Shown here piece after piece: positions 19,067-50,739 of a stretch of DNA of 64,000 nucleotides (its first letter is position 1; each line of letters begins with the position of its first letter). Origin of the DNA: Eledone cirrhosa. Its lineage: Eukaryota. The notes beneath the pieces were generated by a model. The model made no database searches. It was not told the origin of the DNA and saw nothing but the letters and a program-made list of their open reading frames with translations. Location of the stretch: the NCBI GenBank assembly GCA_964016885.1, contig OZ024740.1:374418001-374482000 (forward strand), given 5' to 3'. The position numbers were made by a program, and so were the translations under genes.

Positions 19067-20890
19067 TACATAGAAAATGCTATTAAAATATCAATTTATT
19101 AGGTTTCAATAAGTCTATGCTGCAGTTGTATATTAAATTTATTCAACTGGTTGTTTATAAAGATAACCAAAATATTTCAAATTTGTATTCCCTGTAAAAT
19201 CACTTTACCTTATTTCAAATATATTTTTATTTTGATCATTTGTTTTGTTATCTCATAATGTTCTATAATCTAATATTTATTCTGATGCATTTTTTATCAC
19301 ATAACTTCAATTTGATGCCATGTTTTATATTTATCTCTATATACGCCGGAACTGGTACATAGTATGTTGTTTACATTCTTATCTAATTGAATATTTAATT
19401 CATTTTAATCCACTTTTTGACGCCTTATAATCTTTCCTTTTCCAGCTTATATTCCACTGTATTCCATTTCGCATACTGCCCTATTCCATCAAGTAAAATA
19501 TTACTTGTTTTATTAATATATTTTCGATTTTTGAGATATTCCTTTATATAAGGACTTGTAACTTCCAAACATATCTGTTGTTAATATGGAACAATCCAGT
19601 GAGAACTGTTCATATTATTTAAATTTTACTATATGAAGATTTACAACTTGTGAACTTTTTTTGCCAGAATAGAAGCAATCGCAGCCCTTTACTATCTACA
19701 CGTTCTGGATTTGCTTATCATATTTGTATTTGTCTAATTTTCCGCAGAATTACTCATCAAACTTTGCCCTTGTTTTACGTCAAAAACTGCCTACACAAAT
19801 AAATTTATGTTTACTTTACTAGTACTACGCACTAACATACATCATATTGTTCTCAGTAACAAATTGGAGATTGGAAATTCAAATTTAAACTTTGCCGTTC
19901 AGAGAAAAGTTGCATTATTTGGGTACTGTGTGATGCTAAAGGTAAACATACCATTTGGATTTCTATTTACAATTAGAGTTACAGGGTGTTTTTTCTGAAA
20001 AACGGCTTTTGGACTATTCCTTATAAATTTATAATGAGCATGGATTTAGTTTCTACATTCAATTAATTTTAATGAAAATAATTAAATATAAATTTTTAAA
20101 ATGCCCTTTAAACGACGAAATATCTAAATTGTTTTAAACTAAAAAAATATTCTTTATAAGTTCTGCTAAAACCGTTCAACCATTATTTTCTTGTGTCCCC
20201 TGAAATCCGTTACTAACGAATTTTAAACAGTCTCATATTTTCATAAAACTGTAGACTAATCCCTATTATCACGCATATATTAAACTTTCCAGATGACCAC
20301 AAATCGTTCACCTATCAGCTTCCTTCAATATGATTAAACTTCCTTATACATCCTCCCGTTAATTGCATTTTGAACACAATGCCATTTTCAGCCTTTTTCT
20401 TGGTTATTTACATCATTAGAGCTAGTGTTTCAAAATAACTCAAACGCCGTATTTGATGAAATGTCGAAGTCTCTGTTACAATAAACATTTAAAATATAAC
20501 ACTGGTTCATGTATTGATTTCTTTATTCGGGCCAATGAAGGGAACTCTAACTTTTATATGTAGACATGAAACGAGAAACCTTATATTCATAAAATGTTTC
20601 TGTATTGGCTATTTTAATTCACTAAGACAAAGGCGTACTTTGAACACCTCTTTGACTTTCGGGGACTCCAAAGCTAGAAGATAGATGTAAATTATAATTG
20701 GAACGTAGAATATTCTTCCGAAATCTGTACAAAAACACAAAACTCCCACATAGAGGTCTGGGACCAGCATTGGATTAAATATTACAAACTTATTAATACA
20801 TTGGATGATTTAATCATCTTTATTCTATTTCGAAGCTAAAGATGTGGAATGTTTTAATTATAAATAGAAAACAATAATAAATATAATAAT

Positions 20891-20920
20891 GATTTCTTTA
20901 TTGGCCACAAGGGCTGACCA
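20891..20920 (-). mobile_element. 30-nt 5'-truncated Tx1-like insertion with an 18-bp TSD
   Basis: The minus strand TGGTCAGCCCTTGTGGCCAATAAAGAAATC resembles the 3' ends at 25915 and 38474. AATAATAAATATAATAAT flanks it at 20873-20890 and 20921-20938. Confidence 0.8.
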
Positions 20921-20974
20921 AATAATAAATATAATAATATCAATATTATTATAATACTTATTGTCTATAATAAC

Positions 20975-21027
<53 letters not shown>

Positions 21028-24000
21028 GGGAAGAAGACGCACGAGGTGACGGAGGTCATGAAATCGCTCCCGTAAGTTTTGAATTTTTAACATATTTAAA
21101 TCATTTGTGAAATAACAACTCTTAGTACAAATGCTACGTAAAGCACCCGGCTTGAGCCCCAAAAGATTCGGACCCAAAATATATTGTTATAAGGCTCAAA
21201 TATTCAAATATTCAACTTTGTATTGTACACTGTATATCCCCAAAAAAATGGCTATAAATGGAAGAAGAAGAACCCCCCCCCCTCCTCTCCTCTGGCTACA
21301 CTATATAGGACAGCTAAACTCACCAACACCAGAAACTAGATACACCGCCCACCCCATCATCTGTGTACACTAAACACAACAGCATTTTCACCTTCACCGC
21401 CACCGCTCACTACGGCCATCATTACCACCACTATCCCATCACCGCCGCCACCACCCCTTGACTCCTTCACTGCTGCTGCCACCGCTACAGCACCATCACT
21501 ACAGTAATACGGCTCAAATATTCAAATATTCAACTTTGTATTGTACACTGTATAGCCAAAAAAAAAAAAATAAAATGGCTATAAATGGAAGAAGAAGAAC
21601 CCCCCCCCCCTCCTCTCCTCTGGCTACACTATATAGGACAGCGAAACTCACCAACACCAGAAACTAGATACACCACCCACCCCATCATCTGTGTACACTA
21701 AACACAACAGCATTTTCACCTTCACCGCCACCGCTCACTACGGCCATCATTACCACCACTATCCCATCACCGCCGCCACCACCCCCTGACTCCTTCACTG
21801 CTGCTGCCACCGCTACAGCACCATCACTACAGTAATACGGTCGCATCACCGCCACCACTGCCTCGGTATCGACATCACCGCCACCACTGATCAGTATCGC
21901 CAACGCCGCTAGTCTCTGCTGGCTACCACTTCCACATTATAGAATTCCTACTACTAACAAAGAGGAAGGCATCAAAATATATAGATAGACTCAAAAGAAA
22001 AAAGAAAAAACAAACAACAAAAGCAGCACAGCAACAACAGTAAAAAACGAGAAAAACAGAGAAAAACAAAAACAAAAAAAGAAACCCCAAAAACGTAAAG
22101 AAAATAAGAATGAAGAGAGAAGCAGGCGGACGGACAGAGAAGAGGGGGGAAAAAGTAAAACTTAAAAAACAAAAACTAAGTCAGACATTCGAATACTACA
22201 TTACAATGAAACTTATGCTTATTCATTTTTGGGGCCCTTTCTGCCCGTGTGTTTGTTTGTTTATGTGTGTCCGTATACAGCGTGGTGATAATGCCACACA
22301 AGGGCCAAGTGGGATGGCGGATCCACAGATGGCTATGTAAACATACATTCGCCAATCCTCGATAAGAGTGTTTAAATATCGAACATAAACAGTTCGAATA
22401 ACGGTGAAATGGAGACTAGAACGTCATGTGACAGACTCTCACCCAACAGGTGCCCCCTGGCTCAGCAGCAGGAACCTGACTGTCAACGAAATACTGCTGA
22501 TGTTGGAGGAAGAAGAAGAAGGAAAGGGGCCAGAACCAACTGGACGAAAGAATTGAATAGAACTGTTATGCAATGCTACCTGAAAAGTAACCACAAGGAG
22601 AGGGGCTACAGGAGACGGATGCATAACATCTGGAACGAGATTGGTTTATTTAAATTAGATGAACAAAAATTGGCCGGGCAGGCTCGGGTAATAAGAACTA
22701 ATGGGTGGATAAGCGAGCTGGAACTGGAGGAACTGAGCAGAGAGAATGGCTTGGAGATGGCGGGTGTAGTATGCCAGACAAGCGAGCCGGCGGGAAATGA
22801 AGGTGAGGAGGTCCTGAGAGCGGAGGAACCACCCGAAGCAGACAATGATCTGAATACTGAGATAAATAATACCTGGAACAGAGATACGGCCACTGAGGAG
22901 ATGAATGCTGACGGGCTAGGACAAGATTCGGTTGACATCCTAAATTTAGTGGTAGATGAGTTGAACAATGATAGTGGGAGACCTATGAACCTAAGATTTG
23001 TAGACAGGAAAAAGTTAAAAGAAACAACAGCTAAGGTAAACAAAGTCATCCCATACCTTGAGGCGAGGAGTCTTCACCAGTGCAACAATATCCTCAAAGC
23101 AACAGCAAATACGGTGAGGAAACTACTTGGTATAAAAGCGAGAGGAAACAACAGACAAGAAAGAGCAGAGCCGTGGTGGAAGAAGCGACTGAGTGGGCAA
23201 ATCGGGGAAATGAGAAATGACATAGGAAAGTTTGAGTCACTACTGAATGGGACACTAAAAAACATAGGCACTAAAAATAGACTGGAAATAAAATACAAAA
23301 CTAGGAGTAAAAAGCTAAATATTATCATAGAGGAATTGAAGCAACGCATTGTAGCAAAGAGTGCCAAAATCAGGCGATACGAGAACAGAGTCAGTCAGTA
23401 TAAACAGAACCGCATGTTCGACAACAACCAGAAGATGCTGTTTGGACAGCTTGAGGGGAAAGAAAGAGGCACCGACTTGATCCCTGGGGCGGAACAAGCT
23501 AAAACATTCTGGAGAGGAATATGGGAGCAGGATGTTAGACACAATGCCCAGGCAGGGTGGATTGAGACAGTACAGAGGGAGATCGGTGAGCAGGCACAGC
23601 AACAGACTGATTTGAGTATCACAGTTGAAACTCTTAAGGGGCAAGCCAAAAAACTAACCAACTGGAAATCACCAGGCCCAGATGGTGTGCAGGGGTATTG
23701 GATTAAACATTTAACATCCCTCCACCCGAAGCTGACGGCCATGTTCAATGACTGCTTGGTGTCGGGTGAGGTGCCAGAGTGGTTGACAAAAGGTTCCACA
23801 GTTCTGATAATGAAAGACCGAATCAAGGGTAATGATGTTACCAACTATAGACCTATCACATGTCTGCCCGTAATGTGGAAACTGTTGACGAGCATTGTGT
23901 CTGAGGAAATCTACCATCACCTCCACACAAACAACTTGTTGCCGGACGAACAGAAAGGATGCCGAAAGAAGTCACGTGGTACAAAGGACCAGTTGCTTAT

Positions 24001-25875
24001 TGATAAGATGGTAATGGGGAATTGCAGGAGGAGACACACTGATCTTGCCATGGGATGGATAGACTACAGAAAGGCATTTGACATGGTGCCTCATTCCTGG
24101 ATCACCAAAAGCCTGGAGATCTTCAGGGTGGCAGATAACATCAGACAGTTGCTGGGCAGGAGTATGGGGTCCTGGGAGACAGAGTTGACATCAACTGGAG
24201 TATCCTTGGGAAGCGTGAAGATCAAGAGAGGTATCTTCCAGGGAGATAGCCTGTCCCCTCTGTTGTTTGTCCTTGCCCTGATGCCCTTGACCATTATGCT
24301 GCGAAAAGTGAGAGCAGGATACAAGTTGGGAAGGGGAGAGCTTACCATCAATCACCTCCTCTTCATGGACGATCTTAAGCTCTTCGGGAAAAGTGAGAAG
24401 GAGTTGGATGTGCTTGTTGACACTGTCCGTATTTTCAGCAGTGATATATGTATGCAGTTTGGTATTGGTAAATGTGGAGTCATTGTGATGAGGAGGGGTA
24501 GGTTGAGCAGAAGTAACGGGATCCAGATACCAACAGGTGAGATGATAAAGGAAATTGACTCTGAGGAAGGATACAAGTATTTGGGCGTTCTGGAGGCTGA
24601 TGGCATAAAGAACAAAAAAATGAAGGAATTGTTAAGAACTGAATACATTCGGAGAGTAAGGAGCGTATTGAAGTCACATCTGAACAGCAGAAATGCCATA
24701 AGCGCAGTAAATTCCCGAGCTGTGTCTATTATTAGGTACAGTGCGGGAATTCTGAGATGGAATGTTGCTGAACAAAAAGAAATGGATAGGAAGACTAGGA
24801 AGCTATTGACTATCTACAACATGTTCCACAAGAGGAGTGATGTCGATAGACTCTACCTAAGGAGATCTGAGGGTGGAAGAGGTCTTATCAGCATAGAGGA
24901 CTGTGTTCAGATGGAGAAAAACAACCTATACAAATACGTGACCTATAGTAAGGAGCCAATGCTCAGAGCTGTACTGAAGGAGGGGACAGTAGGCCAGGGG
25001 ATACCCAAGGAGGAAATAACATCAAGGAGGAAGAGCAGCCTTAAGGGAAAATCCCTTCATAGTACCTTCTTTGAGAAAACTGAATTTAGAGATCCATAGA
25101 CATGGAACTGGTTGAGAAGAGGAGACCTCAAAAAGGCTACAGAAGGAATGCTAATGGCTGCACAGGAGCAGGCCCTCAAAACGAAGTGGTTGAAGCACCA
25201 TATCTACAAGGAGGAGGCTAGCCCACTGTGCAGGATCTGTGGAGAGAGAGAGGAGACTGTGGCTCACATTGTGTCCGAGTGTAAACACCTAGCCCAGACC
25301 CACTATAAGGGCTGGAGACACGATGTGATGGGCAGGGTGATCCACTGGCACCTGTGCAAAGTAAACAATCTACCACATTCTGAGAAATGGTATGAGCATA
25401 GGCCAGAGGCGGTGATGGAGAACAGTCAGGTGAAGGTGCTGTGGGATTTTAGGATACAGACGGACAAAAAACTGGAACACAATAGACCTGACCTGGTGGT
25501 TGTGGACAAAGAAAAAAGATCGTGCCTGATTGTGGATGTGGCCTGCCCGTTCGACACGAGAGTGCAAGAGAAGGAGAGGGAGAAAATTAACCGATACCAG
25601 GACCTAAAGTGGGAGGTGAAAAGGATTTGGAACTGCCATGAAGTCAAAGTGATCCCGATTGTCATAGGCGCACTGGGGACTATCTCCAAAGGTTTCCAGG
25701 GATGGTTAAAGAAAATCGGCCCCTTCACGCTTTTTGGAACGCTTCAAAAGGCATGCTTGCTTGGAACGGCAAGAACCCTCCGATACGTCCTGAATATCTG
25801 AGGCTGCAGGTAGTGGCTTGATATTCAATCCAACGGACTTTCCAGTTGACCAACATCAATGACTGAGATTCAAGG
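21028..25875 (+). mobile_element. R4/Dong-like RLE non-LTR retrotransposon, family A (A1 subfamily), full-length, young
   Basis: (TAA)n on both flanks, a 1.4-kb leader with the same 5' start as the copy ending at 6961, a single long ORF and a 75-nt 3' UTR. Confidence 0.95.
22409..25801 (+). pseudogene. Family A polyprotein (Myb-like N-terminus, RT, CCHC, RLE; 1130 codons) with one premature stop at 25097-25099
   Basis: ORFs 22409-25099 and 25112-25801 are in the same frame, and the TAG corresponds to CAG in the 45-48 kb copy. Motifs: YRPITCL, DYRKAFD, QGDSLSP, FMDD, CRIC-x8-H-x4-C, RHD, RPD, D-VACP, EKINRY. Confidence 0.93.
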
Positions 25876-26168
25876 AATAACAATAACAATAATAATAATA
25901 ATAATAATAATAATGTTTTCTTTATTAACCACAAGGGTTTACATAAAGTAGACATTAAGGACAGTACAGGACAATACAGGACAATACAGGACGGTACAAA
26001 TGGGCATTTCTGCGTGTAAAAAAAACAGCGGATGAAATAAAATAACAAAGAAAAATTCCCCAATAGGGGGGAGACTTCCGATGGACATTTGTGGAGAAAG
26101 CCCATTAAAAGACCACAGTGGCCCTGACCACCAGGGCAAGTGCCCTCTCCCAGTTTTCCACCTTCAAT

Positions 26169-29100
26169 TTACAGACACATACTCAGAGAAGGCCCATTCA
26201 TTCGGGCCATACTTGCTTCTCTCACCCATCTTTTAACAAAATGCTGGGAAGAGAGCACTTCCCTCTCTACCCTGATTTTCCTTTTCAAATGAAATTTGAA
26301 AAAGTTAATCAGGGCATCACCGAAGAGGTAAGTGCTCCGTCTTCAGCCCTTTCAAACGTGTCCACCATACTATCTCTTTCGCCATGGCCACCAGACAGAT
26401 AAACACTGCCTGCCCTTCCCGGCTAAAGGAAGGGGGCGGGGCAACCCTCACGATGGACTCAGCTGATAGCTGGATCCGTCCTACATGTGACAGCAGGTGT
26501 TCGACATAAACCCACAAGTCAGCAATGCTCGGACACTGGACGAGTGCGTGCAGGACGGTTTCGTCGCCCTGTGCGCATCTCGGACATGCCCGACTGACGC
26601 CACCTCCATACCTGTAAAGTTTATCCCGAACTGGCAAAGCACCCCGGTAGCACTGCCAGGCCATGGATTTCTGGAAGTTGTCCATAGGCCCCGGCCCGAA
26701 AGTCCTTCCTAAGAGATTGGCTAGTTGTTTCTCGTCGACGCCTAGAGTTTCTCCAAGTACGTCGTCGCTCTTCCCCTCCACTAATCCCCTATAGAACGCC
26801 AAGGTGTAGTTTCCACCGATCACATTGCCCGATTGGTCGAGGGCTGTGAGCGCCTGGAGACATTCCAGTCTCCAAGCGCTCCCTCTCGGTCTTCCCTTGA
26901 CCCAGGACTGCAGCTCCGTCAAGGAGACGAGCTGGGGAAAAACGTGTCTAGCAAACGGCGATCACACCTGATCATCGTCGAGGAAGAGGTGGAGATGTCG
27001 TAGCCTGAGCGCGTGTCTGCGCATCATCAGCCACGGCATGCCCAGCCCTCCACGTACCGGGTGTTGACAGCAGATGGACCGCCTGACCATCGGAGCGCGT
27101 TCCTTCCACAAGCAGCGAAAGAGCAAACGCTCCAGCGCAGTCAGGCGGGGCTTATGACAAGGTACGACGGTCAGGCGGTAGTAGATGACGGACGCGATGT
27201 ACGCGTTAGCCACCTCCGCTCGACCTTTCAGGGATAGCTTCCTCTCGGCCCATTTCTGGGTGAGAGAAGCCACCCTGCTCGTCACCTCGTCCCAGTTTCT
27301 ATCCGTCTGGAGGTCTGGACCGAACCAGACCCCTAGCAATTTAACCGGTCCGTCTGTCCAGCGCCCGGCGACGCTGTTGGACGGCATGGACCTGCTTGTC
27401 CAGGTGCCGAGCTGCAGGCCCACTGACTTTTCCAGGTTGATCATTGCTCCTGTCACCGCTTCGTATTCTCTTAGTTTAGTGCCGATCGCCTCGATGTGTT
27501 TGGCGTTCGACACACACTACGGTGACATCGTCGGCATATGCTGACACGGATCTTCCGCATCCTAGTTCGCGCGGGATCCCCCTCAACGTCTCCAGTTTCT
27601 GCAGTAATGGCTCGAGAGTCAATACGTACAATAGGGACGAGAGGGGACATCCTTGGCGGACCGAGCGCATGATGTTGAACGGTTCCGAAAGGTGACCGTT
27701 CACTCTCACTACAGAGCAGATGTTGCTGTGCATGGCAGCGATCCAGCATCTGAAGACGGGCCCAAAGCCAGCCGCCCTCAGGACTGCCTCTTGGTAACGA
27801 TGGTCGACCCTATCGAAGGCTTTCGACTTATCTAAATTGATCAAAGACCCACCCGTGCCAGGTTCCCTAGCTACCCTCTCTACGATGTATCGGATGAGGT
27901 GGAGGTTGTCGTGGATGGATCTGTCGGGAATGGCGCATGTCTGTGCCTCTCCCACCAGACCACCAACGACAAGCGCCAACCTCTTTCCTTGCACCTTGGC
28001 CAAAATCTTGAACTCTGTGTTTAGCAGAGTTATGGGCCTAAAATTATCTATGTTATCCCCCTGTTCGGATCCTTTCTCAGCAGCGCCACCGCTCCTCGGC
28101 TCACAGAGCTGGGAATTCTCCCGTTCTGTTGCCAGTTGCAGTAGACATCCGCCAAGAGGCCTCCGAACAAGTTTGGCATTTGTACGTAAAGTTCATATGG
28201 CAGACCATCCAAACCAGGCGATTTACCCCTTGTGCAACTAGTCATTGCATCCCGTACTTCAGCGGTTGTTATCGGCTTTTCGCAACACTCCGCCTCAGTG
28301 GCCGAAAGCCGCGGCAGTCCGTCGAGGTAGACACTAAAGTCCATCCCTCGATCCGGCCCGCCACTGCCCCCGAACAGTTGAGCGAAGTGTCGCTGAAAAG
28401 CTTCACACATTTGCCCGGGATCGAGTAGCATGCGCCCGTCGTTGCCCACCAAAGACCGGATCGTGGCTTTGTTGCCACGGCGCGCCTCCGCCACTCGGGC
28501 CCATTGAACGGCTTTCGTCCCCTCGTGTCTGAGAGCACGCACCCTAGCTCTGACAACGCAGCCTTCGTGCTTTGCATTGACGAATTGGTCAAGGGCCAAT
28601 TTCGCCGCAAGTACGTCGGTCGCGATGCCTTTGCTAAGCGCCTCATCTAATTTTCTAACTAATTCTCCCTCTGCTCTATTTTTCTCTATTGCTAAAGTCT
28701 TACTAAACCTAATGGACTCTATTCTAATTGCTCTTTTCAGAGGAAACCACCACTTGTTGTCGACGATGGCCCCCGTCAACGCCCGCTTAACTAGTTCGCT
28801 AATCAGGTCTCTGTAGGCCTTGTGCGCTGGTAAGGACGCGTTTAGCTTCCAGTAGCCGGGTCCTCGTCTATGAAGCCTATCTAAGTCAAGCACACAGATC
28901 ACGAATTTGTGGTCCGTGTAGCTGACTATCTTGAATTGTGGACAGCCTATGCTAGACCTATCTATTTCCCTACAAAATACTCTATCTAGATATGATCTGG
29001 ATGACCCAATGCGATTTAACCAAGTCCACATTGGTACATTCGGGAAATCCATTCGGTACCTGTCAGACAGTTCAAAACGTCTGAGCAGGTTGGTGAGTCT

Positions 29101-29591
29101 CTTGCACCCTCCTTCCATATCCACTAATCCCACACAATCCCAGCATGCATCTAAGATCCCTATCCAGTCGCCCACTAACACTAAAGAGCGGGACGTTCCA
29201 AGAAAGGTCTCCAGGCGCCGGAAGAAATCAGGCCGCCCTACTCCTGTCGGGGCATAGACGGCCACTGATCTGAAAGCTTGGCCGTCTCCGCTGGTCACGT
29301 CCAGCACCACCAACTTACCTTCTGGGTCCAGGAAGATGGCCCGTATAGCAAGATCCAAACCTCTCCGAAAAAGCACAGCAACTCCCCCCCCCCCGATCCC
29401 GGACGGCTGGGAGATGCGTACACATCGTAGCCGCCGAAGATCGGTGCTAAAACCTGTGCTTCGGAGATTCTGGTCTCGCTGATGGCCACTACAACTATGT
29501 TTAGTGACCTGAGGTCGTTGAGCAGGTGGCCCTGCTTCCATGACGACCCCAAGCCACGCGCATTTATGCTGCCTATTCTGAGTGAGGTCAT
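26169..29591 (-). pseudogene. Tx1a ORF2 (AP endonuclease, RT, C-terminal Cys/His motif), frameshifted
   Basis: Motifs SINARGL, ISETR, VGDW, YLDRVF, TDHK, PGYWKLN, KSPGLDGLP, KAFDRVDH, RQGCPLS, YADD and CPRC...ETVLHALVQC. Confidence 0.92.
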
Positions 29592-29625
29592 GTTGAAAAG
29601 GAGTGGAAAAGATGGGAAAGACCAC

Positions 29626-31820: not shown

Positions 31821-31874
<54 letters not shown>

Positions 31875-36800: not shown

Positions 36801-38413
36801 TGTTTGTCCTTGCCCTGATGCCCCTGACCATTATACTGCGAAATGTGAGAGCCAGATACAAGTTGGGAAAGGGAGAGCTTACCATCAATCACCTCCTCTT
36901 CATGGATTATCTTAAGCTCTTCGGGAAGAGTAAGAAGGGGTTGGATGTGTTTGTTGACACTGTCCGTATTTTCAGCAATGATATATGTATGCAATTTGGT
37001 ATTAGTAAGTGTGGAGTCCTTGTGATGAAGAGTGGTAAATTGAGCAGAAGCAAAGGAATCCGGGTACCAACAGGTGAGATGATAAAGGAAATTGACACTG
37101 AAGAAGGATACAAGTATTTGGGTGTTCTGGTGGCTGATGACATCAAGAACAAAAAACATGAAGGAATTGATAAGATCTGAATACATTAGGAGAGTATGGA
37201 GCGTATTAAAGTCACATCTGAACTGTAGGAATGCCATAAGTGCAGTAAATTCCCGAGCTGTGTCTATTATTAGGTACAGTGCGGGAATTCTGAGATGGAA
37301 TGTTGCTGAACAAAAAGAAATGGATAGGAAGACTAGGAAGCTATTGACTATCTACAACATGTTCCACAAGAGGAGTGATGTAGTTAGATTCTACTTAAGG
37401 AAATTTGAAGGTGGAAGAGGTCTTATCAGCATAGAGGACTAGTTACGATGGAGAAAAATAACCTACACAACTACGTGACTGATAGTAAGGAGCCAATGCT
37501 CAGAACTGTACTGAAGGAGAGGACAATAGACCTGGGAATGTCCAATGACGAAATAACAACAAGGAGAAAGAACAGCCTTCAGGAAAAAATCCCTTCATAG
37601 TACCTTCTTTGAGAAAACGGAATTCAGAGATCCACAGACATGGAACTGGTTGAAAAGAGGAGACCTTTAAAAGGCTACAGAAGGAATGTTAATGGCTGCG
37701 CAAGAGCAGGCCCCCACAACGAAGTGTTTGAGACACCATATTTACAAGAAGGAGGCTAGCCCACTGTGCAGGATCTGTGTAGAGAGAGAGGAGACTGTGG
37801 CTCACATTGTATCCGAGTGTAAATACCTAGCCCAGACTCACTATAAGGGCTGGAGACATGATGTGATGGGCAGGGTGATACACTGGCACATATGCAAAGT
37901 AAACAATTTACCACATTGTGAGAAGTGGTATGAGCATAAGCCAGACTCTGTGATAAAAAACGATCAGGTGAAGATTCTGTGGGATTTTAGGATACAGACG
38001 GACAAGAAACTGGAACACAATAGACCTGACCTGGTGGTTTTGGACAAAGAAAAAAGATCGTGCCTGATTGAGGATGTGGCCTGCCCATTCGACACGAGAG
38101 TGCAAGAGAAGGAGAGGGAGAAAATTAACCGATACCAGGACTTACAGTGGGAGGTAAAAAGGATTTGGAACTGCCATGAAGTCAAAGTGGTCCCGATTGT
38201 CATAGGCACACTAGGTACTATCTCAAAATGTTTCCAGGGATGGTTAAAGAAAATTGGCCCCTTCACGCTGTTTGGAACGCTGCAAAAGGCATGCTTGCTG
38301 GGAATAGCAAGAACCCTCCGATACGTCCTCAATAGCTAAGGCTGCAGGTAGTGGCTTGATATTCATTTCAACAAACTTTCCAGTTAACTAACATCAATGA
38401 CTGAGACTCAAAG
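33884..38413 (+). mobile_element. Family A (A2 subfamily) copy, leader partly truncated, ORF 34914-38339 with several stops and frameshifts
   Basis: ORF pieces 34914-35594, 35951-37180, 37092-37442 and 37686-38339 are collinear with 22409-25801; TAA tail. Confidence 0.93.
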
Positions 38414-38473: not shown

Positions 38474-41400
38474 GATATATTTATTGGCCACCAGGGCTGA
38501 CATCAAGAAGAACATTAAAGACGGCACAGGATGGTACGATGTGGGTTTTGTGCGTGTAAATATTTTTATTGTTTATATAAGAAAAGAAAAAAATAACATA
38601 AAACATATATATATATATAAACAATAAAAATGAAAATTGAAACAATGAAAAATTCCTCAATAGAGGGGAAACCTCCGAGGGTTACTCGTGGCGTAAACCA
38701 CACAAAAGACAACGGCCACCATGACCACCAGGGCAAGCGCCCTCTCAATGTTTCCATCTCTCAAACTACAGACGTATATTCATAGTGGTCCCGTTCACTC
38801 GGACCGTTCTGGCTACATTCACCCACCGTTCAACAAACTTGCTAGAAAGCAGCACTTGCCTCTCCACCATGAATTTCCTCTTCAAGTGAAACTTTAAAAA
38901 GTTAATTTGGGATTCGCCGAAGATGAAAGTGTTTGTCTGTAATCCTTTTAACCTTGTCCACCACACAATCTCTTTCGCCATGGCCACCAGGCAGATGAAA
39001 ACCGCCTGCCCTTCCTCTTCGAAGGAAGACGGCGAGACCATCTGCACAATGGACTCAGGCGATAACTGGATCAGTCCTACACCAGACAGCAACTGTTTGA
39101 CATAGCTCCACAAGTCAGCAATGCTCGGGCACTGAACGAGTGCGTGCACGAAGGTTTCGTCGCTCTGCGCGCATCTCGGACAGGCTCGGCTGACGGCACT
39201 TCGGGGCTTGTAGAGCTTATCTCGAACCGGCAGCGCTCCCCGGTAGCACTGCCAGGCCAGGGATTTTTGGAAGTTATCCATAGGCCCCGGGCTGAAAGTT
39301 CTCTGGAAGAGAGCAAGCAGCTGATCTTCTTCGACGCCCAGGATCTCTCCGAGAACGTCGACGCATCTCCCCTCCAATAGTCCTCTATAGAACGCCGAGG
39401 TGGATGTTCCACCGATACTGGTGCCCAACTGGAAGAGGGCAGTGAGCGCCTGGAGACATTCTAGTTTCCAAGCGCTATCCCTCGGTCTTTTTCTGATCCA
39501 GGACTGCAGCTCCATCAAGGAAACGAGCTGTGGGAAAACGTGCTTGGCGAACGGCGTCCACACCCGTTCACCATCAAGGAAGCACCAGAGATATCGCAGC
39601 CTCAACGCATGTTTGTGCATCATCAGCCATGGCATGCCCAGTTCTCCACGCAACGGGTGTTGGCAGCAGATGGATCGTCTGACCATGAGAGCGCGTCCCT
39701 TCCACAAAAAGCGGAAGAGGAGGCGCTCCATTTTGGTGAGAGTTGGGCTGGAGCAAGGGACGACGGCGAGGCGGTAGCAGATGACGAATGCTATGTACGC
39801 ATTCGCCACTTCCGTCCGGCCTTTTAGGGACAGCTTCCTCTCAGCCCATTTCTGGGTGAGGGAGGCGACCCTGCTCGTCACCTCGTTCCAGTTTTTCTCC
39901 ATCTGGAGGTCCGGTCCGAACCAGACCCCGAGCAATTTAACCCGTCCGTTCCTCCAACGCTCCACGACGCTGTCGGACGGCATGGACTTGCCTCTCCAGG
40001 TGCCGAGCTGCAAGCCCACCGACTTTTCCTGGTTTATGTTTGCTCCTGCCACCGCTGCGTATTCCTTGAGAGCGGTGCCGAGCATCTGGACGTGTCTGGT
40101 GCTCGATACCACCACTGTGACGTCGTCAGCGTAATCCGACTCGGATATCCCGCATCCTAGTTCGCGTGGGACGCCCCTCGTCGTCCCCAGTTTGTGCAGT
40201 AACGGCTCCAGAGTCAATACGTACAAGAGGGACGAGAGGGGACAACCCCTGCGGACTGAGCGCATGATGCTGAACGGCCGCGACAGGTGACCGTTCACCC
40301 TCACAACTCAGCAGACATGGCTGTACATTGCTGCGATACAACCCCTGAAAACCGTCCCGAAACCGTCTGCCTTGAGGACCGCTGCCAGGTACCGATGGTC
40401 TACCCTATCGAATGCTTTCGTTTGATCCAAGTTGATCAGGGCCCCATCCTTGCCATGTTCTTTAACCAGCCTCTCTATGATGTATCGCATGAGGTGGATG
40501 TTGTCGTGTATGGATCTGTCAGGAATGGCGCATGTCTGCGCCTCTCCCACCAGACCCTTGACGACAAGCGCCAACCTCGTAGCTAACACCTCCGCCAAAA
40601 TCATGAACTCTGCGTTTAGCAGGGTTATGGGCCGGAAATTATCCATAACATCCCCCTTGTTCGGGTCTTTTCTCAGCAGCCCAAAAGCTCCCCAGCTCAC
40701 AAAACTGGGAATGCTCCCGTTCTGCTGCCAATTGCAGTAGACGTCTGCCAAGACGTCACCGAACAAGTCTGGCATAATTGCATAAAGCTCGTAGGGAAGA
40801 CCATCTAAACCTTATCCCCTTGTGCAGTTAGCCGTCGCTTCCCGTATTTCACCGGCTGATATTGTCTTTTCGCAACACTGTGCTGCGGTCGTCGAGAGCC
40901 GAGGCAGTCCGTCGATGTATGCACTGAAGTCCATGCCTCGATCCGGGCCGCCGCCGCTCGCGAACAGTTCAGCAAATTGCTGCTGAAAACCTTCACACAT
41001 CCGCTCGGGTTCGAGCATCACACACCCGATTTGGTCAGACAAAGACCGAATTGTGGCTTTGTACCCACGTCGCGCCTCTGCCACCCGGGCCCACTGGACG
41101 GCTTTTGTCCCCTCGTGTTTCAGAGCAGGCGCTCTAGCTCTGGCAACGCAGCCTTCTTTTTTTGCGTTGAAGAATTGGTCGAGTGCCAATCTCTCGCAAG
41201 CACGTCGGTTGCGATGCCTGTCCTAAACGCCTCTTCTAGCTTTCTGACTAGCTCTCCCTCTACTCTATTTTCCTCTATCACTACTCCTTTGCTAAACCTA
41301 ATCGACTCTACTTCAATTGCCCTTTTCAGGGCGAAACACCACCTGTTGTTGACGACCGCTCCCGTCAACGCCCGCTTAACTAATACGCTAACCCGGTCTC

Positions 41401-44400
41401 TGTAGGCTTTGCGCGCCGGGAAAGACGCGTTCAGCTTCCAGTAACCAGGCCCTTGTCTATGAAGTATGTCTATGTTGATCTCACAGATCACAAATTTGTG
41501 GTCTGTGTAGTCGACTATTTTAAATTGTGGACAACTTATCCTAGCCTTATCTAGTTCTCTGCAGAAAACCCTATCGAGACACGATCTGGATGACCCGATG
41601 CGGTTTGTCCATGTCCACATTGGCACATTCGGGTGATCCAGTCGATACCTGTCAGACAGTTCAAAACGTCTGAGCAGGTTGGTGAGCCTATTGCACCCTC
41701 CTCCCCTATCCACTAACCCCAGACGATCCCACCGTGCATCCAAGATACCGTTCCAGTCGCCCACTAACACTAAAGAGCGGGACGTTCGAAGAAAGGTCTC
41801 TAGACGTCTGAAGAAATCTGGCCGTCCTGCCCCTGTTGGGACGTAGACGGCTACTAGCCTGAAAGCATTGCCTTCGCTGCCGGTCACGTCCAGCACCACC
41901 GACTTACCTTCTGGGTCCAGGAAGATGGCCCGTATCGCGAGATCCAAGCCTCTCCGAAAAAGGACGACAACCCCTCCCCCGATCCTGGACGGCTGGGAGA
42001 TGCGTATACATCGTAGCGGCCGAAGATCGGTGAGAAGGCCTGTGCCTCGGAGATTCTGGTTTCACTGATGGCCACCAAATCCATGCTTAGTGGCCTGAGG
42101 TCATTGAGCAAGTGACCCTGCTTCAAAGATGACCTCAGGCAACGTGCATTTATACTGCCTGTGTACAGCCATGTTGGATGAGAAACGGGCCATGTGAGAA
42201 AGGGTCACTTACCTTGTTGGTGTGGTGAAGGGACAGTAGAACCGTCCCTTTCGCTGGTCATGGGTGTTTCCAAGAGGATGTCAGTGTATATCCTCTTTGG
42301 TAACCGACCATCTGAAGTCTCCAACTGCGTTGGGGAATTTTTGTTTTAAAGGTTTTTACTGTTCTATTGAGATTTCGATTATGCTTATGTTTGTCGGGAG
42401 AGTTCTTGGTGTTGGTGGGGTATAGTAGTTTCTTTTCTGTGATATCTGTGTGCTGCTTTATATATTGTATGAGTTCTTTTTTTGCCATGTTTATGGCTGT
42501 GTACTTTTTGGGGGGAGGGGTGATTTTGTTGCTGTTTTCTTCTTGTTGCTGTATGCTGTGTTTGTCTTGTTGTGTTTGCGTTGTTGGTGTTTGTGGTGGT
42601 GATGGTGGTGGGGTTGCTGCAAGTTTCTTTGCTGCCTTTACCCCTCTTTGTATGCCTTCGCTTTTGGAGGGTGAATTTAAGGTTTTTTTTTGTTTTTTGT
42701 TTTTTTGTGGCAGGCTCTTTGCCACTTCACTCCCGCCTCAAACTCCATGTCGGATTCTGTGGCGTCTGGGAGGGGTATGTGCTCCACGGTTGTTGGTGGT
42801 GGTAGTGGAGCCCTCTTCGGCAATGTTGTTGCTGGTGTAGCTACTTTAAATGTAGCTATTGGTGTTGCCGCTACTGACGATGCTGCTTTAGTTATCCGTG
42901 GCCTTCTTACGGGTGCTACGGACGTTGCTCTCCTACTCAGTGGAAGGGGCTTCTTCGTTTGTTGCCTGTCCTGCTCTTGGTAGCAGCGGACCAGGTATTG
43001 GAAAGAAAGGGGCTCTCTTCGCTGTCTTCTGCGGGCAAAGGTCCCTGAGGTTACCCTTCGACCCACAGTGATAACATTTTGGCCGTCTTCCTTCTACACT
43101 TATAGGGGGTTGGAGTCCTTCCTCGATGTATATGATATCGGGGATAGCCTCGATACGTTCCTTGTCAGTTTGTATAAGCATTTGCGTGCCTATACCTGAC
43201 CAGTTCTCTCTCCCTATTTTTTCTACTTTCAGCATGGTCGCCCTGTTCTCAATTCCAGCAAGGACAGACGCGGCCAGCCAAGGTATGGGCACGTCGGGTG
43301 GGACCTGGGTCACTTTGACCCTCACAATTTTCTGCCCGCAGTAGGAGGGCACCAAGACTATCTCCTCACTCTTTAGGGTTTCCAAAGAGTGAGACTTTGC
43401 TTCCTGGGGGTGGCGAAAATTACGTCTAATATGGCGTACTTTCTGCCTCGGGTGATGTGGGTTTTGCGTAGCCAGACGCACCCCAAGGCCTTTTGGATTT
43501 GAGCCTCTGTGGCTCTCTCCACTCGATGTGAGATTTTGCTTACGGTGCGGTAAGTCACCGTCCATAGCTGCTGGTCCTTGAAAAAATCGGGTGGAGGTTT
43601 CAGGGAAACTCTATTTGCGCTTCTTGTCACCATGACCCTTGCGACTGCCATCTCCTCCTCTGTGACTAACACTGTCTCGATATTTCGGGCGACCCTGCAA
43701 AAGAAGTGGTCTCTTTTTCAGCAGGACCACTATTGCTGCCGCTACTGGTCTTACTGGTGGTGCTTAGGTTGCTATTACAGGTATCGGTGTCATTGTTATT
43801 GTTTACGCTGGTACAGTTGTTGGTGTTGTTGTTGTTGTTTTCGTTGATACTGTTGCTGTTGTTACTGTTATTGTGGCTGTTTTTATTATTGTTGTTTTTG
43901 TTGATACTGTTCCTACTATTATTGTTGATGTGGCTGTTGTTATTGTCCTTATTATTGTCGTTCTCGACCTTACCGCTGTTATTTTTGTTATTGTCGTTCT
44001 CGACCTTACCGCTGTTATTTTTATTATTGCCGTTCTCGACTTTACCGCTGTTATTTTTGGTGTTGTTGTTGGTGTTGCTGTTGGTGTTATTGTTGGTGTT
44101 GTTTGTGTTAGGAATATTTGGTAATTTTAAATCTGTAACAATCTTTTTTCCTTTGTAATATTTCCGTTTATATTTACCTCCGCTGGAACGCTGTCTTGTT
44201 GACATACTGATAATGGTTCCCTCTCTCTGTCTTGTCTGACAGCGCTCTCTCTCTTTCTTGTGTATCCATGTTGAAATTAAAAAAATATGTATAGTTTTAC
44301 ACAAATACGAATACGACACCCCGTAAAGGGGTGCCGTATTATTTACTAGTGAACCCCTGTATTAGGTCGGTCACTTCTTCTAAACTTTTCTCAAATTTAA

Positions 44401-44482
44401 AACTTGAATAAAAGGTTTAGAACGGTTGAAAAAGAGGTAAAACGTTGAAAAAAACTGGAGGCGATAAGAACGTGGCTTCACC
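38474..44482 (-). mobile_element. L1/Tx1-clade non-LTR retrotransposon, family Tx1b, full-length, frameshifted
   Basis: ORF1 at about 42205-44269 (Asn-rich N-terminus with three 33-bp repeats at 43955-44060; CYHCGSKGNLRDLC). ORF2 at 38766-42172 (VGDWN, TDHK, KAFDRVDH, YADD, CPRC). The 3' end is AATAAA then (ATT)n, with the microsatellite on both sides. Confidence 0.92.
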
Positions 44483-44491
44483 AACAATAAC

Positions 44492-44559
<68 letters not shown>

Positions 44560-44580
44560 TAATAATAATAATAATAATAA

Positions 44581-47500
44581 TCTGCTAAAAAAGAGGAAGG
44601 CATCAAAATTATAGAATCCCTACTGCTAAAAAAGAGGAAGGCATCAAAATATATAGATAGACTCAAAAGAAAAAAGAAAAAACAAACAACAAAACCAAAG
44701 CAGCACAGCAACAACAGCAAAAAACGAGAAAAACAAACAGAGAAAAACAAAAACAAAAAAAAACCCCCCAAAACGTAAAGAAAATAAGAATGAAGAGAGA
44801 AGCAGGCGGACGGACAGAGAAGAGGGGGGAAAAACTAAAACTAAAAAAACAAAAACTAAGTCAAACATTCGAACACTACATTACAATGAAACTTATGCTT
44901 ATTCATTTTTGGGGCCCTTTCTGCCTGTGTGTTTGTTTGTTTATGTGTGTTCGTATACAGCGTGGTGATAATGCCACACAAGGGCCAAGTGGAATGGCGG
45001 ATCCACAGACGGCTATGTAACCATACATTCGCCAATCCTCGATAAGAGTGTTTAAATATCGAACATAAACAGTTCGAATAACGGTGAAATGGAGACTAGA
45101 ACGTCATGTGACAGACTCTCACCCAACAGGTGCCCCCTGGCTCAGCAGCAGGAACCTGACTGTCAACCAAATACTGCTGATGTTGGAGGAAGGAGAAGAA
45201 GGAAAGGGGCCAGAACCAACTGGACGAAAGAATTGAATAGAACTGTTATGCAATGTTACCTGAAAAGTAACCACAAGGAGAGGGGCTACAGGAGACGGAT
45301 GCATAACATCTGGAACGAGATTGGTTTATTTAAATTAGATGAACAAACATTGGCCGGGCAGGCTCGGGTAATAAGAACTAATGGGTGGATAAGCGAGCTG
45401 GAACTGGAGGAACTGAGCAGAGAGAATGGCTTGGAGATGGCGGGTGTAGTATGCCAGACAAGCGAGCCAGTGGGAAATGAAGGTGAAGAGGTCCTGAGAA
45501 CGGAGGAACCACCCGAAGCAGACAATGAACTGAATACTGAGATAAATAATACCTGGAACAGAGATACGGCCACTGAGGAGATGAATGCTGACGGGCTAGG
45601 ACAAGATTCGGTTGACATCCTAAATTTAGTGGTAGATGAATTGAACAATGATAGTGGGAGACCTATGAACCTAAGATTTGTAAACAGGAAAAAGTTAATA
45701 GAAACAACAGCTAAGGTAAACAAAGTCATCCCATACCTTGAGGCGAGGAGCCTTCACCAGTGCAACAATATCCTCAAAGCAACAGCAAATACGGTGAGGA
45801 AACTACTTGGTATAAAAGCGAGAGGAAACAACAGACAAGAAAGAGCAGAGCCATGGTGGAATAAGCGACTGAGTGGGCAAATCGGGGAAATGAGAAATGA
45901 CATAGGAAAGCTTGAGTCACTACTGAATGGGACAATAAAAACATAGGCACTAAAAATAGACTGGAAATAAAATACAAAACTAGGAGGAAAAAGCTAAATA
46001 TTATCATAGAGGAACTGAAGCAACGCATTGTAGCAAAGAGTGCAAAAATCAGGCGATACGAGAACAGAGTCAGTCAGTATAAACAGAACCGCATGTTCGA
46101 CAACAACCAGAAGATGCTGTTTGGACAGCTTGAGGGGAAAGAAAGAGGCAACGACTTGATCCCTGGGGCGGAGCAAACCAAAACATTCTGGAGAGGAATA
46201 TGGGAGCAGGATGTTAGACATAATTTCCAGGCAGGGTGGATTGAGACAGTACAGAGGGAGATCGGTGAGCAGGCACAACAACAGACTGATTTGAGTATCA
46301 CAGTTGAAACTCTTAAGGGGCAGGCCAAAAAACTAACCAACTGGAAATCACCAGGCCCAGATGGTGTGCAGGGGTATTGGATTAAACATTTAACATCCCT
46401 CCACCCGAAGCTGACGGCCATGTTCAATGACTGCTTGGTGTCGGGTGAGGTGCCAGAGTGGTTGACAAAAGGTACCACAGTTCTGATAATGAAAGACCGA
46501 ATCAAGGGTAATGATGTTACCAACTATAGACCTATCACATGTCTGTCCGTAATGTGGAAACTGTTGACGAGCATTGTGTCTAAGGAAATCTACCATCACC
46601 TCCACACAAACAACTTGTTACCGGACGAACAGAAAGGATGCCGAAAGAAGTCACGTGGTACAAAGGACCAGTTACTTATTGATAAGATGGTAATGGGGAA
46701 TTGCAGGAGGAGACACACTGATCTTGCCATGGGATGGATAGACTACAGAAAGGCATTTGACATGGTGCCTTATTCTTGGATCACCAAAAGCCTGGAGATC
46801 TTCAGGGTGGCAGATAACATCAGACAGTTGCTGGGCAGGAGTATGGGGTCCTGGGAGACAGAGTTGACATCAACTGGAGTATCCTTGGGAAGCGTGAAGA
46901 TCAAGAGAGGTATCTTCCAGGGAGATAGCCTGTCCCCTCTGTTGTTTGTCCTTGCCCTGATGCCATTGACCATCATGCTGCGAAAAGTGAGAGCAGGATA
47001 CAAGTTGGGAAGGGGAGAGCTTACCATCAATCACCTCCTCTTCATGGACGATCTTAAGCTCTTCGGGAAAAGTGAGAAGGAGTTGGATGTGCTTGTTGAC
47101 ACTGTCCGTATTTTCAGCAGTGATATATGTATGCAGTTTGGTATTGGTAAATGTGGAGTCATTGTGATGAGGAGGGGTAGGTTGAGCAGAAGTAACGGGA
47201 TCCAGATACCAACAGGTGAGATGATAAAGGAAATTGACTCTGGGGAAGGATACAAGTATTTGGGCGTTCTGGAGGCTGATGGCATAAAGAACAAAAAAAT
47301 GAAGGAATTGTTAAGAACTGAATACATTCGGAGAGTAAGGAGCGTATTGAAGTCACATCTGAACAGCAGAAATGCCATAAGCGCAGTAAATTCCCGAGCT
47401 GTGTCTATTATTAGGTACAGTGCGGGAATTCTGAGATGGAATGTTGCTGAACAAAAAGAAATGGATAGGAAGACTAGGAAGCTATTGACTATCTACAACA

Positions 47501-48553
47501 TGTTCCACAAGCGGAGTGATGTCGATAGACTCTACCTAAGGAGATCTGAGGGTGGAAGAGGTCTTATCAGCATAGAGGACTGTGTTCAGATGGAGAAAAA
47601 CAACCTATACAAATACGTGACCTATAGTAAGGAGCCAATGCTCAGAGCTGTACTGAAGGAGGGGACAGTAGGCCAGGGGATGTCCAAGGAGGAAATAACA
47701 TCAAGGAGGAAGAGCAGCCTTAAGGGAAAATCCCTTCATAGTACCTTCTTTGAGAAAACTGAATTTAGAGATCCACAGACATGGAACTGGTTGAGAAGAG
47801 GAGACCTCAAAAAGGCTACAGAAGGAATGCTGATGGCTGCGCATGAGCAGGCCCTCAAAACGAAGTGGTTGAAGCACCATATTTACAAGGAGGAGGCTAG
47901 CCCACTGTGCAAGATCTGTGGAGAGAGAGAGGAGACTGTGGCTCACATTGTGTCCGAGTATAAACACCTAGCCCAGACACACTATAAGGGCTGGAGACAC
48001 GATGTGATGGGCAGGGTGATCCACTGGCACCTGTGCAAAGTAAACAATTTACCACATTCTGAGAAATGGTATGAGCATAGGCCAGAGGCGGTGATGGAGA
48101 ACAATCAGGTGAAGGTGCTGTGGGATTTTGGGATACAGACGGACAAAAAACTGGAACACAATAGACCTGACCTGTTGGTTGTGGACAAAGAAAAAAGATC
48201 GTGTCTGATTGTGGATGTGGCCTGCCCGTTCGACACGAGAGTGCAAGAGAAGGAGAGGGAGAAAATGAACCACTACCAGGACCTAAAGTGGGAGGTGAAA
48301 AGGATTTGGCACTGCCATGAAGTCAAAGTGATCCCCATTGTCATAGGCGCACTGGGGACTATCTCCAAAAGTTTCCAGGGATGGTTAAAGAAAATCGGCC
48401 CCTTCACGCTTTTTGGAACGCTTCAAAAGGCATGCTTGCTTGGAACAGCAAGAACCCTCCGATACGTCATGAATATCTGAGGCTGCAGGTAATGGCTTGA
48501 TATTCAATCCAACGGACTTTCCAGTTAACCAACATCAATGACTGAGATTCAAG

Positions 48554-48554
<1 letters not shown>
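44581..48554 (+). mobile_element. Family A (A1 subfamily) copy, truncated within the leader, young
   Basis: Near-identical to 21940-25875 and flanked by (TAA)n. Confidence 0.95.
45089..48480 (+). pseudogene. Family A polyprotein with one 1-nt deletion near 45935-45941
   Basis: ORFs 45089-45946 and 46093-48480. The sequence reads gacaataaaaacatagg versus gacactaaaaaacatagg in the 22-kb copy. Confidence 0.92.
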
Positions 48555-48583
<29 letters not shown>

Positions 48584-48585
<2 letters not shown>

Positions 48586-49468
48586 GGCCAGGGGATGTCC
48601 AAGGAGGAAATAACAACAAGGAGAACGAGCAACCTTCATGAAAAATCCCTTCATAGTACCTTCTTTGAGAAAACGGAATTCAGAGATCCACAGACATGGA
48701 ACTGGTTTAGAAGACGAGACATTAAAAAGGCTACAGAATGAATGCTAATGGCTGCGCAAGAGCGGGCCCTCAAAACGAAGTGGCTGAAACACCATATTTA
48801 CATGGAGGAGGCTAGCCCACTCTGCAGGATCTGTGGAGAGAGAGAGGACACTGTGGCTCACATTGTATCCGAGTGTAAACACCTAGCCTAGACTCACTAT
48901 AAAGGCTGGAGACATGATGTGATGGGCAGGGTGAACCACTGGCACCTATGCAAAGTAAACAAGTTACCACATTCTGAGAAGTAGTATGAGCATAAGTCAG
49001 AGTCGGTGATTGAAAACGATCAGGTGAAGGTGCTATGGGATTTTAGGATACAGACGGACAAGAAACTGGAACACAATAGACCTGACCTGGTGGTTTTGAA
49101 CAAGGAAAAAAGATCGTGCCTGATTGAGGATGTGGCCTGCCCATTCGACACGAGAGTGCAAGAGAAGGAGAGGGAGAAAATTAACCGATACCAGGACTTA
49201 AAGTGGGAGGTAAAAAGGATTTGGAACTGCCATGAAGTCAAAGTGGTCCCGATTGTCATAGGCACACTAGGTACTATCTCAAAAAGTCTCGCCGGATGGT
49301 TAAAGAAAATTGGCCCGCCCCGCTTTTTGTAACACTTCAAAAGGCATGCTTTCTTGGAACAGCAAGAACCCTCCGATACGTCCTGAATATATGAGGCTGC
49401 AGGCAGTGGCTTGATATTAATTTCAACAAACTTTCCAGTTAACTAACATCAATGACTGAGACTCAAAG
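48584..49468 (+). mobile_element. Family A 5'-truncated decayed copy (about 885 bp; CCHC-RLE region)
   Basis: Starts at GQGMSKEE directly after (TAA)n, contains internal stops, and ends with the A 3' UTR and TAA tail. Confidence 0.92.
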
Positions 49469-49500
49469 AACAATAATAATAATATTAATAATAATTATTA

Positions 49501-49787
49501 TTTCTGTATTAACCACAAGGGTTTACACCTAGTAAGACATTATAGACAGTACAGGACAATACATGACAATACAGGACGGTATAAATAGGCATTTCTGCGT
49601 GTAAAAAAAACAAAATCAGAGGATGTAATAAAAAAGGAACAATGAAAAATTCCCCAATAGTGTTAAGACTTCCGAGGGCCATCGTGGAGAAAGCCCATTA
49701 AAAAAAGCCACAGTGACCCTGACCACCAGGCCAAGTGTTCTCTCCCAGTTTTCCACTTTTAATTTACAGGCACATACTCAGAGTAGG
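49501..49787 (-). mobile_element. Tx1a-like 3'-terminal fragment (about 285 bp)
   Basis: Matches 25917-26190 (attaaccacaagggtttaca...acaggacaataca...ccctgaccaccagg) and has TAA-rich flanks. Confidence 0.88.
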
Positions 49788-50739
49788 AAAATAATAATTG
49801 TAATAAAAGTAACAACAACAACAACAAAAACAAAATTAGTTATAAGAAGTAAACACTTATCCATTAAGATGCTACATATTTATTAACGACAGACAAACGT
49901 ATTCAAAAGTAGAAGTTGAAGAACACCGACCTCTTCAAAGAAGATTATGAGGTTAGGGTGCATTTTATAAAGTATGGTTCTATAGAAACCTGTCTGTTAT
50001 GATGTTCACAGTGATGTATTCTTTAGTCTTATAAAATCGTTCACACAATGTCTTATCTAATATATCTCTCTATGTCAGAATCTATTGGCTTCTAGAACGT
50101 TTGTCTTACAGTGTGTAAGACATTTGAAAGAAAATGTATGATCAATGTAAAACATGAAAGTAAATACAACTGACATTTTGGTCTCGCAATAACGAAAGTG
50201 GGGAAAGAAGAGGTAGAGTGTAAGAAGGGGACAGAGAAAGGGACATAGTGCGAGACAATATGTTAAAAGAAAACAACCAAAAATATATATTCAAAACAAC
50301 AACAACGCAGTGTTCAAGACCTAAAATCAATTGACATGCAGTGAAGTGGGATGTCTAAGAACATACATTGGTACTGTAGATTGATGAGCTAAGAATGAAA
50401 ATAAATTTATATTTGCGATTACATGCTGTTCTCATAATACAATTTTTCAGACACACCTAACCATTTACATATGTATGTTTTTATGGTTTTACAATTTTAT
50501 AAAATTTTCCCAATAGAGAGTGACTCCGTTTCTAACATAGATAAAATACTCTCTCATTCACACACCATTACCTCGGTAGATATATATATACATGTATGCA
50601 TGCATGCATGTGTTTCCAGGTATGGATGTTATTATATGTGTGGATGTATATGTTTTGATTTATATGTGTGCATCTCTATATACTTTGTATCTGTACATGC
50701 GCACATGCAGTTATTAGATGCAACATTTTCGGAATGTTT

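Follow-up and report, generated by a model that had tools for sequence, protein, structure and literature searches.

Two retrotransposon lineages with different endonucleases occupy (TAA)n tracts in opposite orientations in the genome of the octopus Eledone cirrhosa

The window analysed here, a 64,000-nucleotide stretch of the Eledone cirrhosa genome (assembly GCA_964016885.1 of 3.0 Gb, contig OZ024740.1, positions 374,418,001 to 374,482,000 of the forward strand), contains a nest of retrotransposons lacking long terminal repeats (non-LTR elements), joined by (TAA)n microsatellite. Self-BLAST, library annotation and a printout of the spacers placed ten insertions between 20891 and 49787, in the order and orientation given by a first-pass annotation of the same DNA. 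Six are Dong/R4-like copies (families A and B) of the restriction-like endonuclease (RLE) type on the plus strand, and four are L1/Tx1-type copies of the apurinic/apyrimidinic endonuclease–reverse transcriptase (APE-RT) type on the minus strand. None of the ten breaks into another. All six A and B copies terminate in (TAA)n and the four Tx1-type copies in (ATT)n or ATT-type sequence, as had been noted. The spacers had been described as essentially TAA only, which is correct for nearly all of them; two contain non-TAA pieces and the first Tx1 tip lies beyond the tract.

The leftmost member is a 30-bp Tx1b 3′ tip (20891 to 20920, minus strand), 100% identical to other Tx1b 3′ ends. It sits in AT-rich flank 56 bp to the left of the tract and has its own perfect 18-bp target-site duplication (TSD), the left copy of which (20873 to 20890, plus strand) matches the right copy at 20921 to 20938; the pre-insertion site reads AATAAT^ATC, the caret marking the breakpoint. 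An AT-rich flank unit, X, and (TAA)17 (20921 to 21027, plus) lead into a full-length Dong/R4-like A1 (21028 to 25876, plus), whose single open reading frame (ORF; 22409 to 25801) has RT, CCHC and RLE-type motifs and one internal stop. This is the youngest copy, 99.75% identical to its best relative. It is followed by a full-length Tx1a (25915 to 31820, minus), with a zinc-knuckle-like motif in ORF1 and an APE-RT-zinc finger (zf) arrangement in ORF2; both ORFs are broken, and a 3′ hairpin with a CUUGU loop is present. The next spacer (31821 to 32012, plus) consists of (TAA)17, a 25-bp copy of the B 5′ junction, a second unit X and (TAA)19, a local duplication of about 130 bp in which unit X (20922 to 20976) is repeated at 31901 to 31952 between Tx1a and B.

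To the right of this spacer lie a 5′-truncated and internally deleted B (32013 to 33531, plus) and a 3′ tip of A (33584 to 33817, plus). The spacer between this tip and A2 is not all TAA: 30 bp of it (33838 to 33867, no strand assigned), lying between two short TAA runs, derive from an abundant, unrelated repeat. A2 itself (33881 to 38412, plus) is near full-length, belongs to an older A subfamily and has a broken ORF. A full-length Tx1b (38477 to 44480, minus) is separated from the 5′ end of a 5′-truncated A1 (44581 to 48554, plus) by a TAA tract (44481 to 44580, plus) that adjoins the 5′ end of Tx1b; because this tract is the 3′ tail of neither neighbour, it is a remnant of the target. A 5′-truncated A (48583 to 49470, plus) and a 287-bp older Tx1a 3′ tip (49501 to 49787, minus; 86% identical to its best relative) complete the nest. 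The best-relative identities, running from 99.75% for A1 to 86% for the Tx1a tip with B unscored, indicate that the array grew stepwise.

The 30-bp piece at 33838 to 33867 belongs to a motif that recurs at 14712 to 14741 of the window and at loci L311, L322, L327, L334, L340 and L342, and in 4 of 20 control regions. It often occurs as an inverted pair 0.4 to 1 kb apart with one copy beside an (AT)n tract, and is possibly an (AT)n-associated element.

Families A and B each have one ORF, in which RT is followed by CCHC and RPD..D..K motifs, the latter two recognised by eye in the translations. Pfam gave RVT_1 and a weak zf-RVT, and Exo_endo_phos had no match; among proteins of solved structure, R2 proteins were the best relatives and L1 came after them. 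Between RT and RLE the two families share 37–42% amino-acid identity. The N-terminal parts of the ORFs, where a SANT/Myb-like domain was sought, gave no Pfam match, and a W-rich motif is visible there by eye. Neither Rfam nor a crude descriptor of our own, which had no positive control, found a hepatitis delta virus (HDV)-like ribozyme in A or B. On the strength of their architecture and target, and not of a tree, we class A and B provisionally as Dong/R4-like; among the homologs listed for them (at least 120), nearly all lack a name. Despite their protein divergence, A and B share a 5′ untranslated region (UTR) head and modules (window 12702 to 11880 and 2209 to 1504; L133, L150, L152, L215), which suggests 5′ UTR exchange. 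A 52-bp 3′ fragment of the short interspersed element (SINE) described below lies within the B 5′ UTR at 11897 to 11948, and other B copies (L133, L215) have it likewise.

The elements Tx1a and Tx1b each contain two ORFs, and ORF2 gave Pfam matches to Exo_endo_phos, RVT_1 and zf-RVT. Against solved proteins this ORF2 matched L1 ORF2p with an E value of 1e-43 and R2 with 1e-21. The two families are about 79% identical in DNA over ORF2 and differ in their 5′ halves. Intact natural ORF2 copies exist and keep the APE catalytic motifs. Named relatives of ORF2 come from Argonauta (70%), Octopus and cuttlefish; the named homologs are cephalopod and fish hypothetical proteins, and no named Tx1 reference is among them. 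The longer endonuclease β-hairpin of the Tx1L type was not found, the loop being gapless against L1 and requiring two gaps against the LTX graft; this long hairpin is a feature of Xenopus Tx1L that is not established as defining the clade. Assignment of Tx1a and Tx1b to the Tx1 clade is also provisional and is made on architecture and target rather than on a tree; the endonuclease loop has the length of that in L1 and not of that in Tx1L.

Further Tx1-type variants were encountered. Tx1c combines the Tx1a ORF2 with another ORF1 and 5′ UTR, the switch lying at the ORF1/ORF2 boundary (L251, L266, L267, L271, L275, L277), and its ORF2 is intact in several copies; an additional Tx1-type 5′ end was seen at L128, L181, L213, L287 and L290. 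The Tx1a 5′ UTR of the window starts with a module of about 175 bp (31646 to 31820, minus) that has a terminal CUUGU hairpin and short ATT run at 31646 to 31682, as if captured from an upstream nest neighbour. Among 80 metagenome relatives, distant (mostly 25–36%) and so uninformative on close ones, no consistent ATT flanks were observed. Two distant fish homologs of ORF2 (P0236, P0237) have locus tags that run consecutively along one contig, a hint that a relative may form arrays.

The polarity seen in the nest is found throughout the genome. An exact-pattern search for Tx1a 5′ ends, ordered by position and made with no score selection, gave 840 forward-strand sites genome-wide, and in the antisense view all 52 of the 52 distinct ends listed by position are followed by AATAATAA. 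Best-hit 5′ ends of both Tx1a (30/30) and Tx1b (30/30), each set including the copy in the window, abut TAA in the same view, as do the best-hit Tx1a 3′ ends (30/30, two only briefly). The first 53 positional Tx1a/c 3′ sites were taken as a junction sample: 49 end at TAAT and 44 lie in a tract, defined as an (AAT)5 match of at least 13/15. The partner across these 53 ends is a Dong-like tail in 21 cases, a Tx1-type 5′ end in nine and a SINE in two, with no library match for the remaining 21. All 23 resolved full-length copies of the sample have a 5′ tract (seven of the 53 copies could not be resolved). Truncated copies were examined as well, because full-length RNA might itself carry 5′ ATT; the 23 truncated or rearranged 5′ junctions, judged by eye, comprise nine tracts, six cases of short AAT or a TSD, two of GAA, five of unrelated sequence and one inverted tract. 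At one locus, L297, a full-length Tx1c is bordered 3′ by (GAA)n and 5′ by a long TAA tract, where 5′ ATT units could have travelled with the RNA.

A wider junction census, in which identical junctions were collapsed, 'neither' includes internal breaks and a fourth subfamily, Tx1d, is absent, assigned 195 of 244 A/B ends to TAA, 2 to TTA and 47 to neither; for Tx1a/b/c (212 ends) the corresponding figures are 2 for TAA, 167 for TTA and 43 for neither. Among ends with a tract, polarity is concordant in 362 and discordant in 4. Where the head common to A and B was listed (100 sites, by eye), about 89 had TAA immediately before them and not one had the opposite strand there. Two readings considered in the first-pass annotation are refuted by these data. 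Orientation within TAA tracts is fixed, not random, and Tx1-type copies do not insert at random and merely acquire an ATT tail, as the microsatellite is also found 5′ of them, truncated ones included. The ATT of the Tx1-type elements is target, not tail.

Between nest members we discovered a SINE-like element of about 190 bp, which at ≥80% identity accounts for 1.5% of the bases in the control regions. Its head has A-box-like and B-box-like motifs by eye; as a tRNA, the head gave no match with ARAGORN or Rfam. Tx1a, Tx1b, Tx1c, the fourth subfamily and the SINE-like element have in common a hairpin with the loop CUUGU, which lies about 12 nt short of the 3′ end. The CCTTGTG core of this hairpin is invariant, and in the stem three of four pairs change on both sides; the covariation value of 0.514 was reached in 0 of 500 shuffles and lies above all slid controls. 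At L009, SINE 3′ fragments of about 77 bp stand in tandem with TAATAAT between them.

Imperfect sites allowed TSDs to be read. Those of Tx1-type copies measure 16 bp (L284), 11 bp (L265) and 18 bp (the tip in the window), and all end in AAT at the 3′ junction. For the SINE-like element 26 of 60 rows were informative (24 distinct), compared with a mean of 1.6 and a maximum of 6 for shuffled flank pairs; position −1 is T and position +1 a purine in every such row, and the median length is 13 bp. The first SINE query began with seven tract bases, a possible source of motif bias, and in a recount that dropped the query-selected copies 73 of 85 3′ ends were at TAAT and 16 of 17 TSDs ended in AAT. 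On the Tx1 side the breakpoint is thus fixed at TAAT^R (R, purine), with duplications of 9–20 bp. A fixed 3′ and a variable 5′ breakpoint are the signature of target-primed reverse transcription, and the first Tx1-type nick is therefore likely to fall at TAAT^R on the TAA strand. The first-pass annotation had the two nucleases nicking opposite strands. The TSDs back the Tx1 half of that proposal; the Dong half stands as a likely deduction, a nick on the TTA strand being what target-primed reverse transcription and the orientation of the copies imply.

The SINE-like element and Tx1 have the same polarity and the same TAAT^R breakpoint, and their TSD lengths overlap; confinement to tracts is weaker in the SINE. 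Common hairpin, polarity and nick together make Tx1 the likely mobiliser of this element, which would then depend on Tx1 proteins.

The nest is one of many. Exact patterns count 3,930 forward-strand sites for the Tx1a/c 3′ motif (the reverse count is inflated by a variable gap), 2,321 for the B 3′ end and 1,237 for the head common to full-length A and B. Five further arrays of about 12, 15, 21, 25 and >33 kb, in regions of the first 37 Mb of the same contig chosen for clustered hits, obey the identical polarity rule. Of 20 fixed-position 10-kb control regions, one lies within a nest; over all 20, (TAA)≥4 tracts make up 216 of 200,000 bases (about 0.1%). What is described here is therefore a genome-wide rule and not a special locus. 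The non-nesting seen in the window is not absolute elsewhere, since SINE copies interrupt Tx1 ORF1 at AAT sites.

A second nest lies within the window itself (1 to 12702, minus). It has the opposite polarity and consists of A and B only, in the order B, A, B, with one more B some 4 kb beyond the left edge of the window, giving a total of about 17 kb (window 1 to 12702 plus L304:5976–10000). Its full-length B copy contains an unrelated insertion of about 800 bp (9627 to 10445), and an imperfect palindrome of about 116 bp (12885 to 13000) stands immediately to its right. A perfect (AGA)57 at 18893 to 19065 has none of the nest elements alongside.

We consider it probable that the two endonucleases, unrelated to each other, each open a different strand of one (TAA)n repeat. 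In thousands of (TAA)n tracts the Dong/R4-like elements lie sense and the L1/Tx1-type elements antisense to the TAA strand. The Tx1-type APE would nick the TAA strand at TAAT^R and the Dong RLE would likely nick the TTA strand, each nick priming reverse transcription on the matching RNA end, (AUU) or (UAA); the annealing of RNA to DNA and the allocation of enzymes to strands are what we infer from the junctions. Each insertion would split a tract into two usable tracts and duplicate part of it, with Dong supplying fresh TAA tails, so that the array may renew itself. With target left on both sides of every insertion, array growth could continue with no element being broken. The SINE-like element likely borrows the Tx1 proteins. 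A broader reading, which we put forward only tentatively, is that a TAAT^R-nicking Tx1-type lineage evolved onto the TAA tails of Dong, drives an abundant octopus SINE by way of the CUUGU hairpin and, with Dong, builds, across the genome, self-renewing and for the most part non-nested two-polarity arrays that yield many of its long TAA microsatellites.

Several observations weigh against these readings. For A and B, neither a TSD nor the phase of the nick can be resolved in pure tracts, and a 5′ tract of at least 12 nt is present in 58 of 91 truncated A/B fragments, the rest including many internal breaks. The expected-polarity 5′ AAT is missing from 8 of 23 truncated Tx1 copies. Copies of Tx1a/c are not confined to (TAA)n, being found in addition at short TAAT sites and in tracts of (GAA)n, (TAG)n and (CAA)n. 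The SINE lies in tracts in only 26 of 85 cases (1 of 8 in controls) and mostly uses short AATAAT sites instead. The census loci were chosen because they contain these elements, and the hairpin was tested on 11 tails that are related and were picked by hand, where related rows can beat shuffles.

The placement of the SINE and the use of other tracts are also what would be expected if the Tx1 nuclease prefers only the short TAAT^R, the tracts being simply dense in this motif, with long copies elsewhere purged and the arrays partly passive graveyards. Since the SINE, with the same nick, is mostly outside tracts, the nuclease alone may indeed not explain tract confinement, to which selection or RNA annealing may contribute in the case of the LINE. 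The Tx1-type target is the short motif TAAT^R, concentrated in tracts and not limited to them. Yet Tx1 tips as short as the SINE are often in tracts too, the tracts that hold 44 of the 53 sampled Tx1 3′ ends amount to about 0.1% of control DNA, and the youngest copies show the same pattern. We regard this combination, a preference for the short motif alone together with purging of long copies elsewhere, as unlikely.

Polarity might instead be set by the RNA tail, either enzyme cutting both strands and only the complementary nick being able to prime. The Tx1 3′ flank is complementary to the AAT-3′ that ends the primer, and annealing effects are known for SART1 and RTE (PMC7265360, PMC6007223). 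The invariant purine at +1 lies outside the primer and so points to nuclease specificity, which makes the annealing explanation distinctly improbable. That Tx1-type elements insert at random and add only an ATT tail, later filled by Dong, would fit the 21 of 53 Tx1 3′ ends that face Dong copies; it is contradicted by the 5′ tracts of both full-length and truncated copies, by TSDs that contain pre-existing AATAAT and by several copies with very short tails, and we give it hardly any weight. An assembly artefact or tandem segmental duplication, suggested by the difficulty of assembling long repeats and by the 130-bp local duplication, is very unlikely given a window free of N, best-relative identities of 86–99.75% with differing truncation points, clean TSDs and the same grammar at other loci.

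The opposite-strand use of (TAA)n combines features of several known systems. Insertion of Dong into (TAA)n is established, mollusks included (PMC7998251, PMC3812793), and a table in PMC13282606 lists Dong-R4 families of Octopus vulgaris that were active recently. Like Dong of the R4 clade, A and B are flanked by (TAA)n at either end and encode RT, CCHC and RLE-type motifs in a single ORF; unlike Dong, there are here two divergent families (37–42%) with one common 5′ UTR head. An HDV-like 5′ ribozyme has been described for Dong and R4, silkworm Dong having one (PMC3774820), whereas A and B gave none in the Rfam and descriptor searches. The Tx1 targets known from PMC4494074 are TC, TTC, TTCC/TTTC, U2 snRNA and transposons. 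Our Tx1-type families resemble Kibi at (TC)n, Koshi at (TTC)n and the crocodilian families at (TTCC)n/(TTTC)n in being APE-RT elements with two ORFs and a microsatellite target (PMC3812793, PMC4494074), and differ from them in using TAAT^R in (TAA)n, which does not figure among the targets given there and is also used by an RLE clade. In the literature searched, which did not extend to Repbase, Kojima and Fujiwara 2004 or the supplement of PMC4494074, we found no Tx1-type family targeting TAA/ATT.

The insertion of two families in opposite directions into one simple repeat recalls TRAS1 and SART1 at (TTAGG)n (PMC7265360), where TRAS1 nicks between T and A. Those two are both APE elements of one clade and telomeric, whereas the microsatellites used here are dispersed and interstitial, and their occupants come from an APE and an RLE clade. 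For SINEU and Tx1-Mar of crocodilians, SINE mobilisation by Tx1 was likewise deduced from a common target preference (PMC4494074); the SINE-like element of Eledone differs in also having the covarying hairpin of the long interspersed element (LINE) 3′ end, and in a target that is a TAAT motif and not a transposon. In the literature searched, to which Repbase and most subscription papers did not belong, no Tx1 partner for an octopus SINE was found. Non-nested linear arrays of unrelated elements formed through microsatellite targeting are known as SaTar arrays from guayule and rice (PMC5907723). SaTar elements are small non-autonomous Mutator-like element (MULE) DNA transposons; the arrays described here are of autonomous non-LTR elements, measure tens of kb and follow a two-polarity rule. 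Octopus repeat surveys list Dong-R4 and L1-Tx1 families (PMC13282606, PMC8967140, PMC9115989), the portions drawn on containing no target analysis, and the transposable element (TE) hotspots of octopus genomes are mapped and not explained in the part of PMC13282606 used. PMC4640811, PMC4758252, PMC4824008, PMC5786205 and PMC11481361 serve as context only.

With TAAT^R, the few site-specific APE retrotransposons known gain a further target. That two clades, one APE and one RLE, use one dispersed microsatellite in opposite polarity makes them a simple natural pair for asking whether nuclease or RNA tail sets orientation, and since intact natural ORF2 copies exist, functional assays are feasible. 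The abundant SINE-like element also gains a probable autonomous partner and a probable recognition hairpin. These findings draw their value not from the single locus of the window but from a rule that holds across the genome, the mapping of the nick and the SINE partner, which together offer a candidate mechanism for some of the TE hotspots of octopus genomes.

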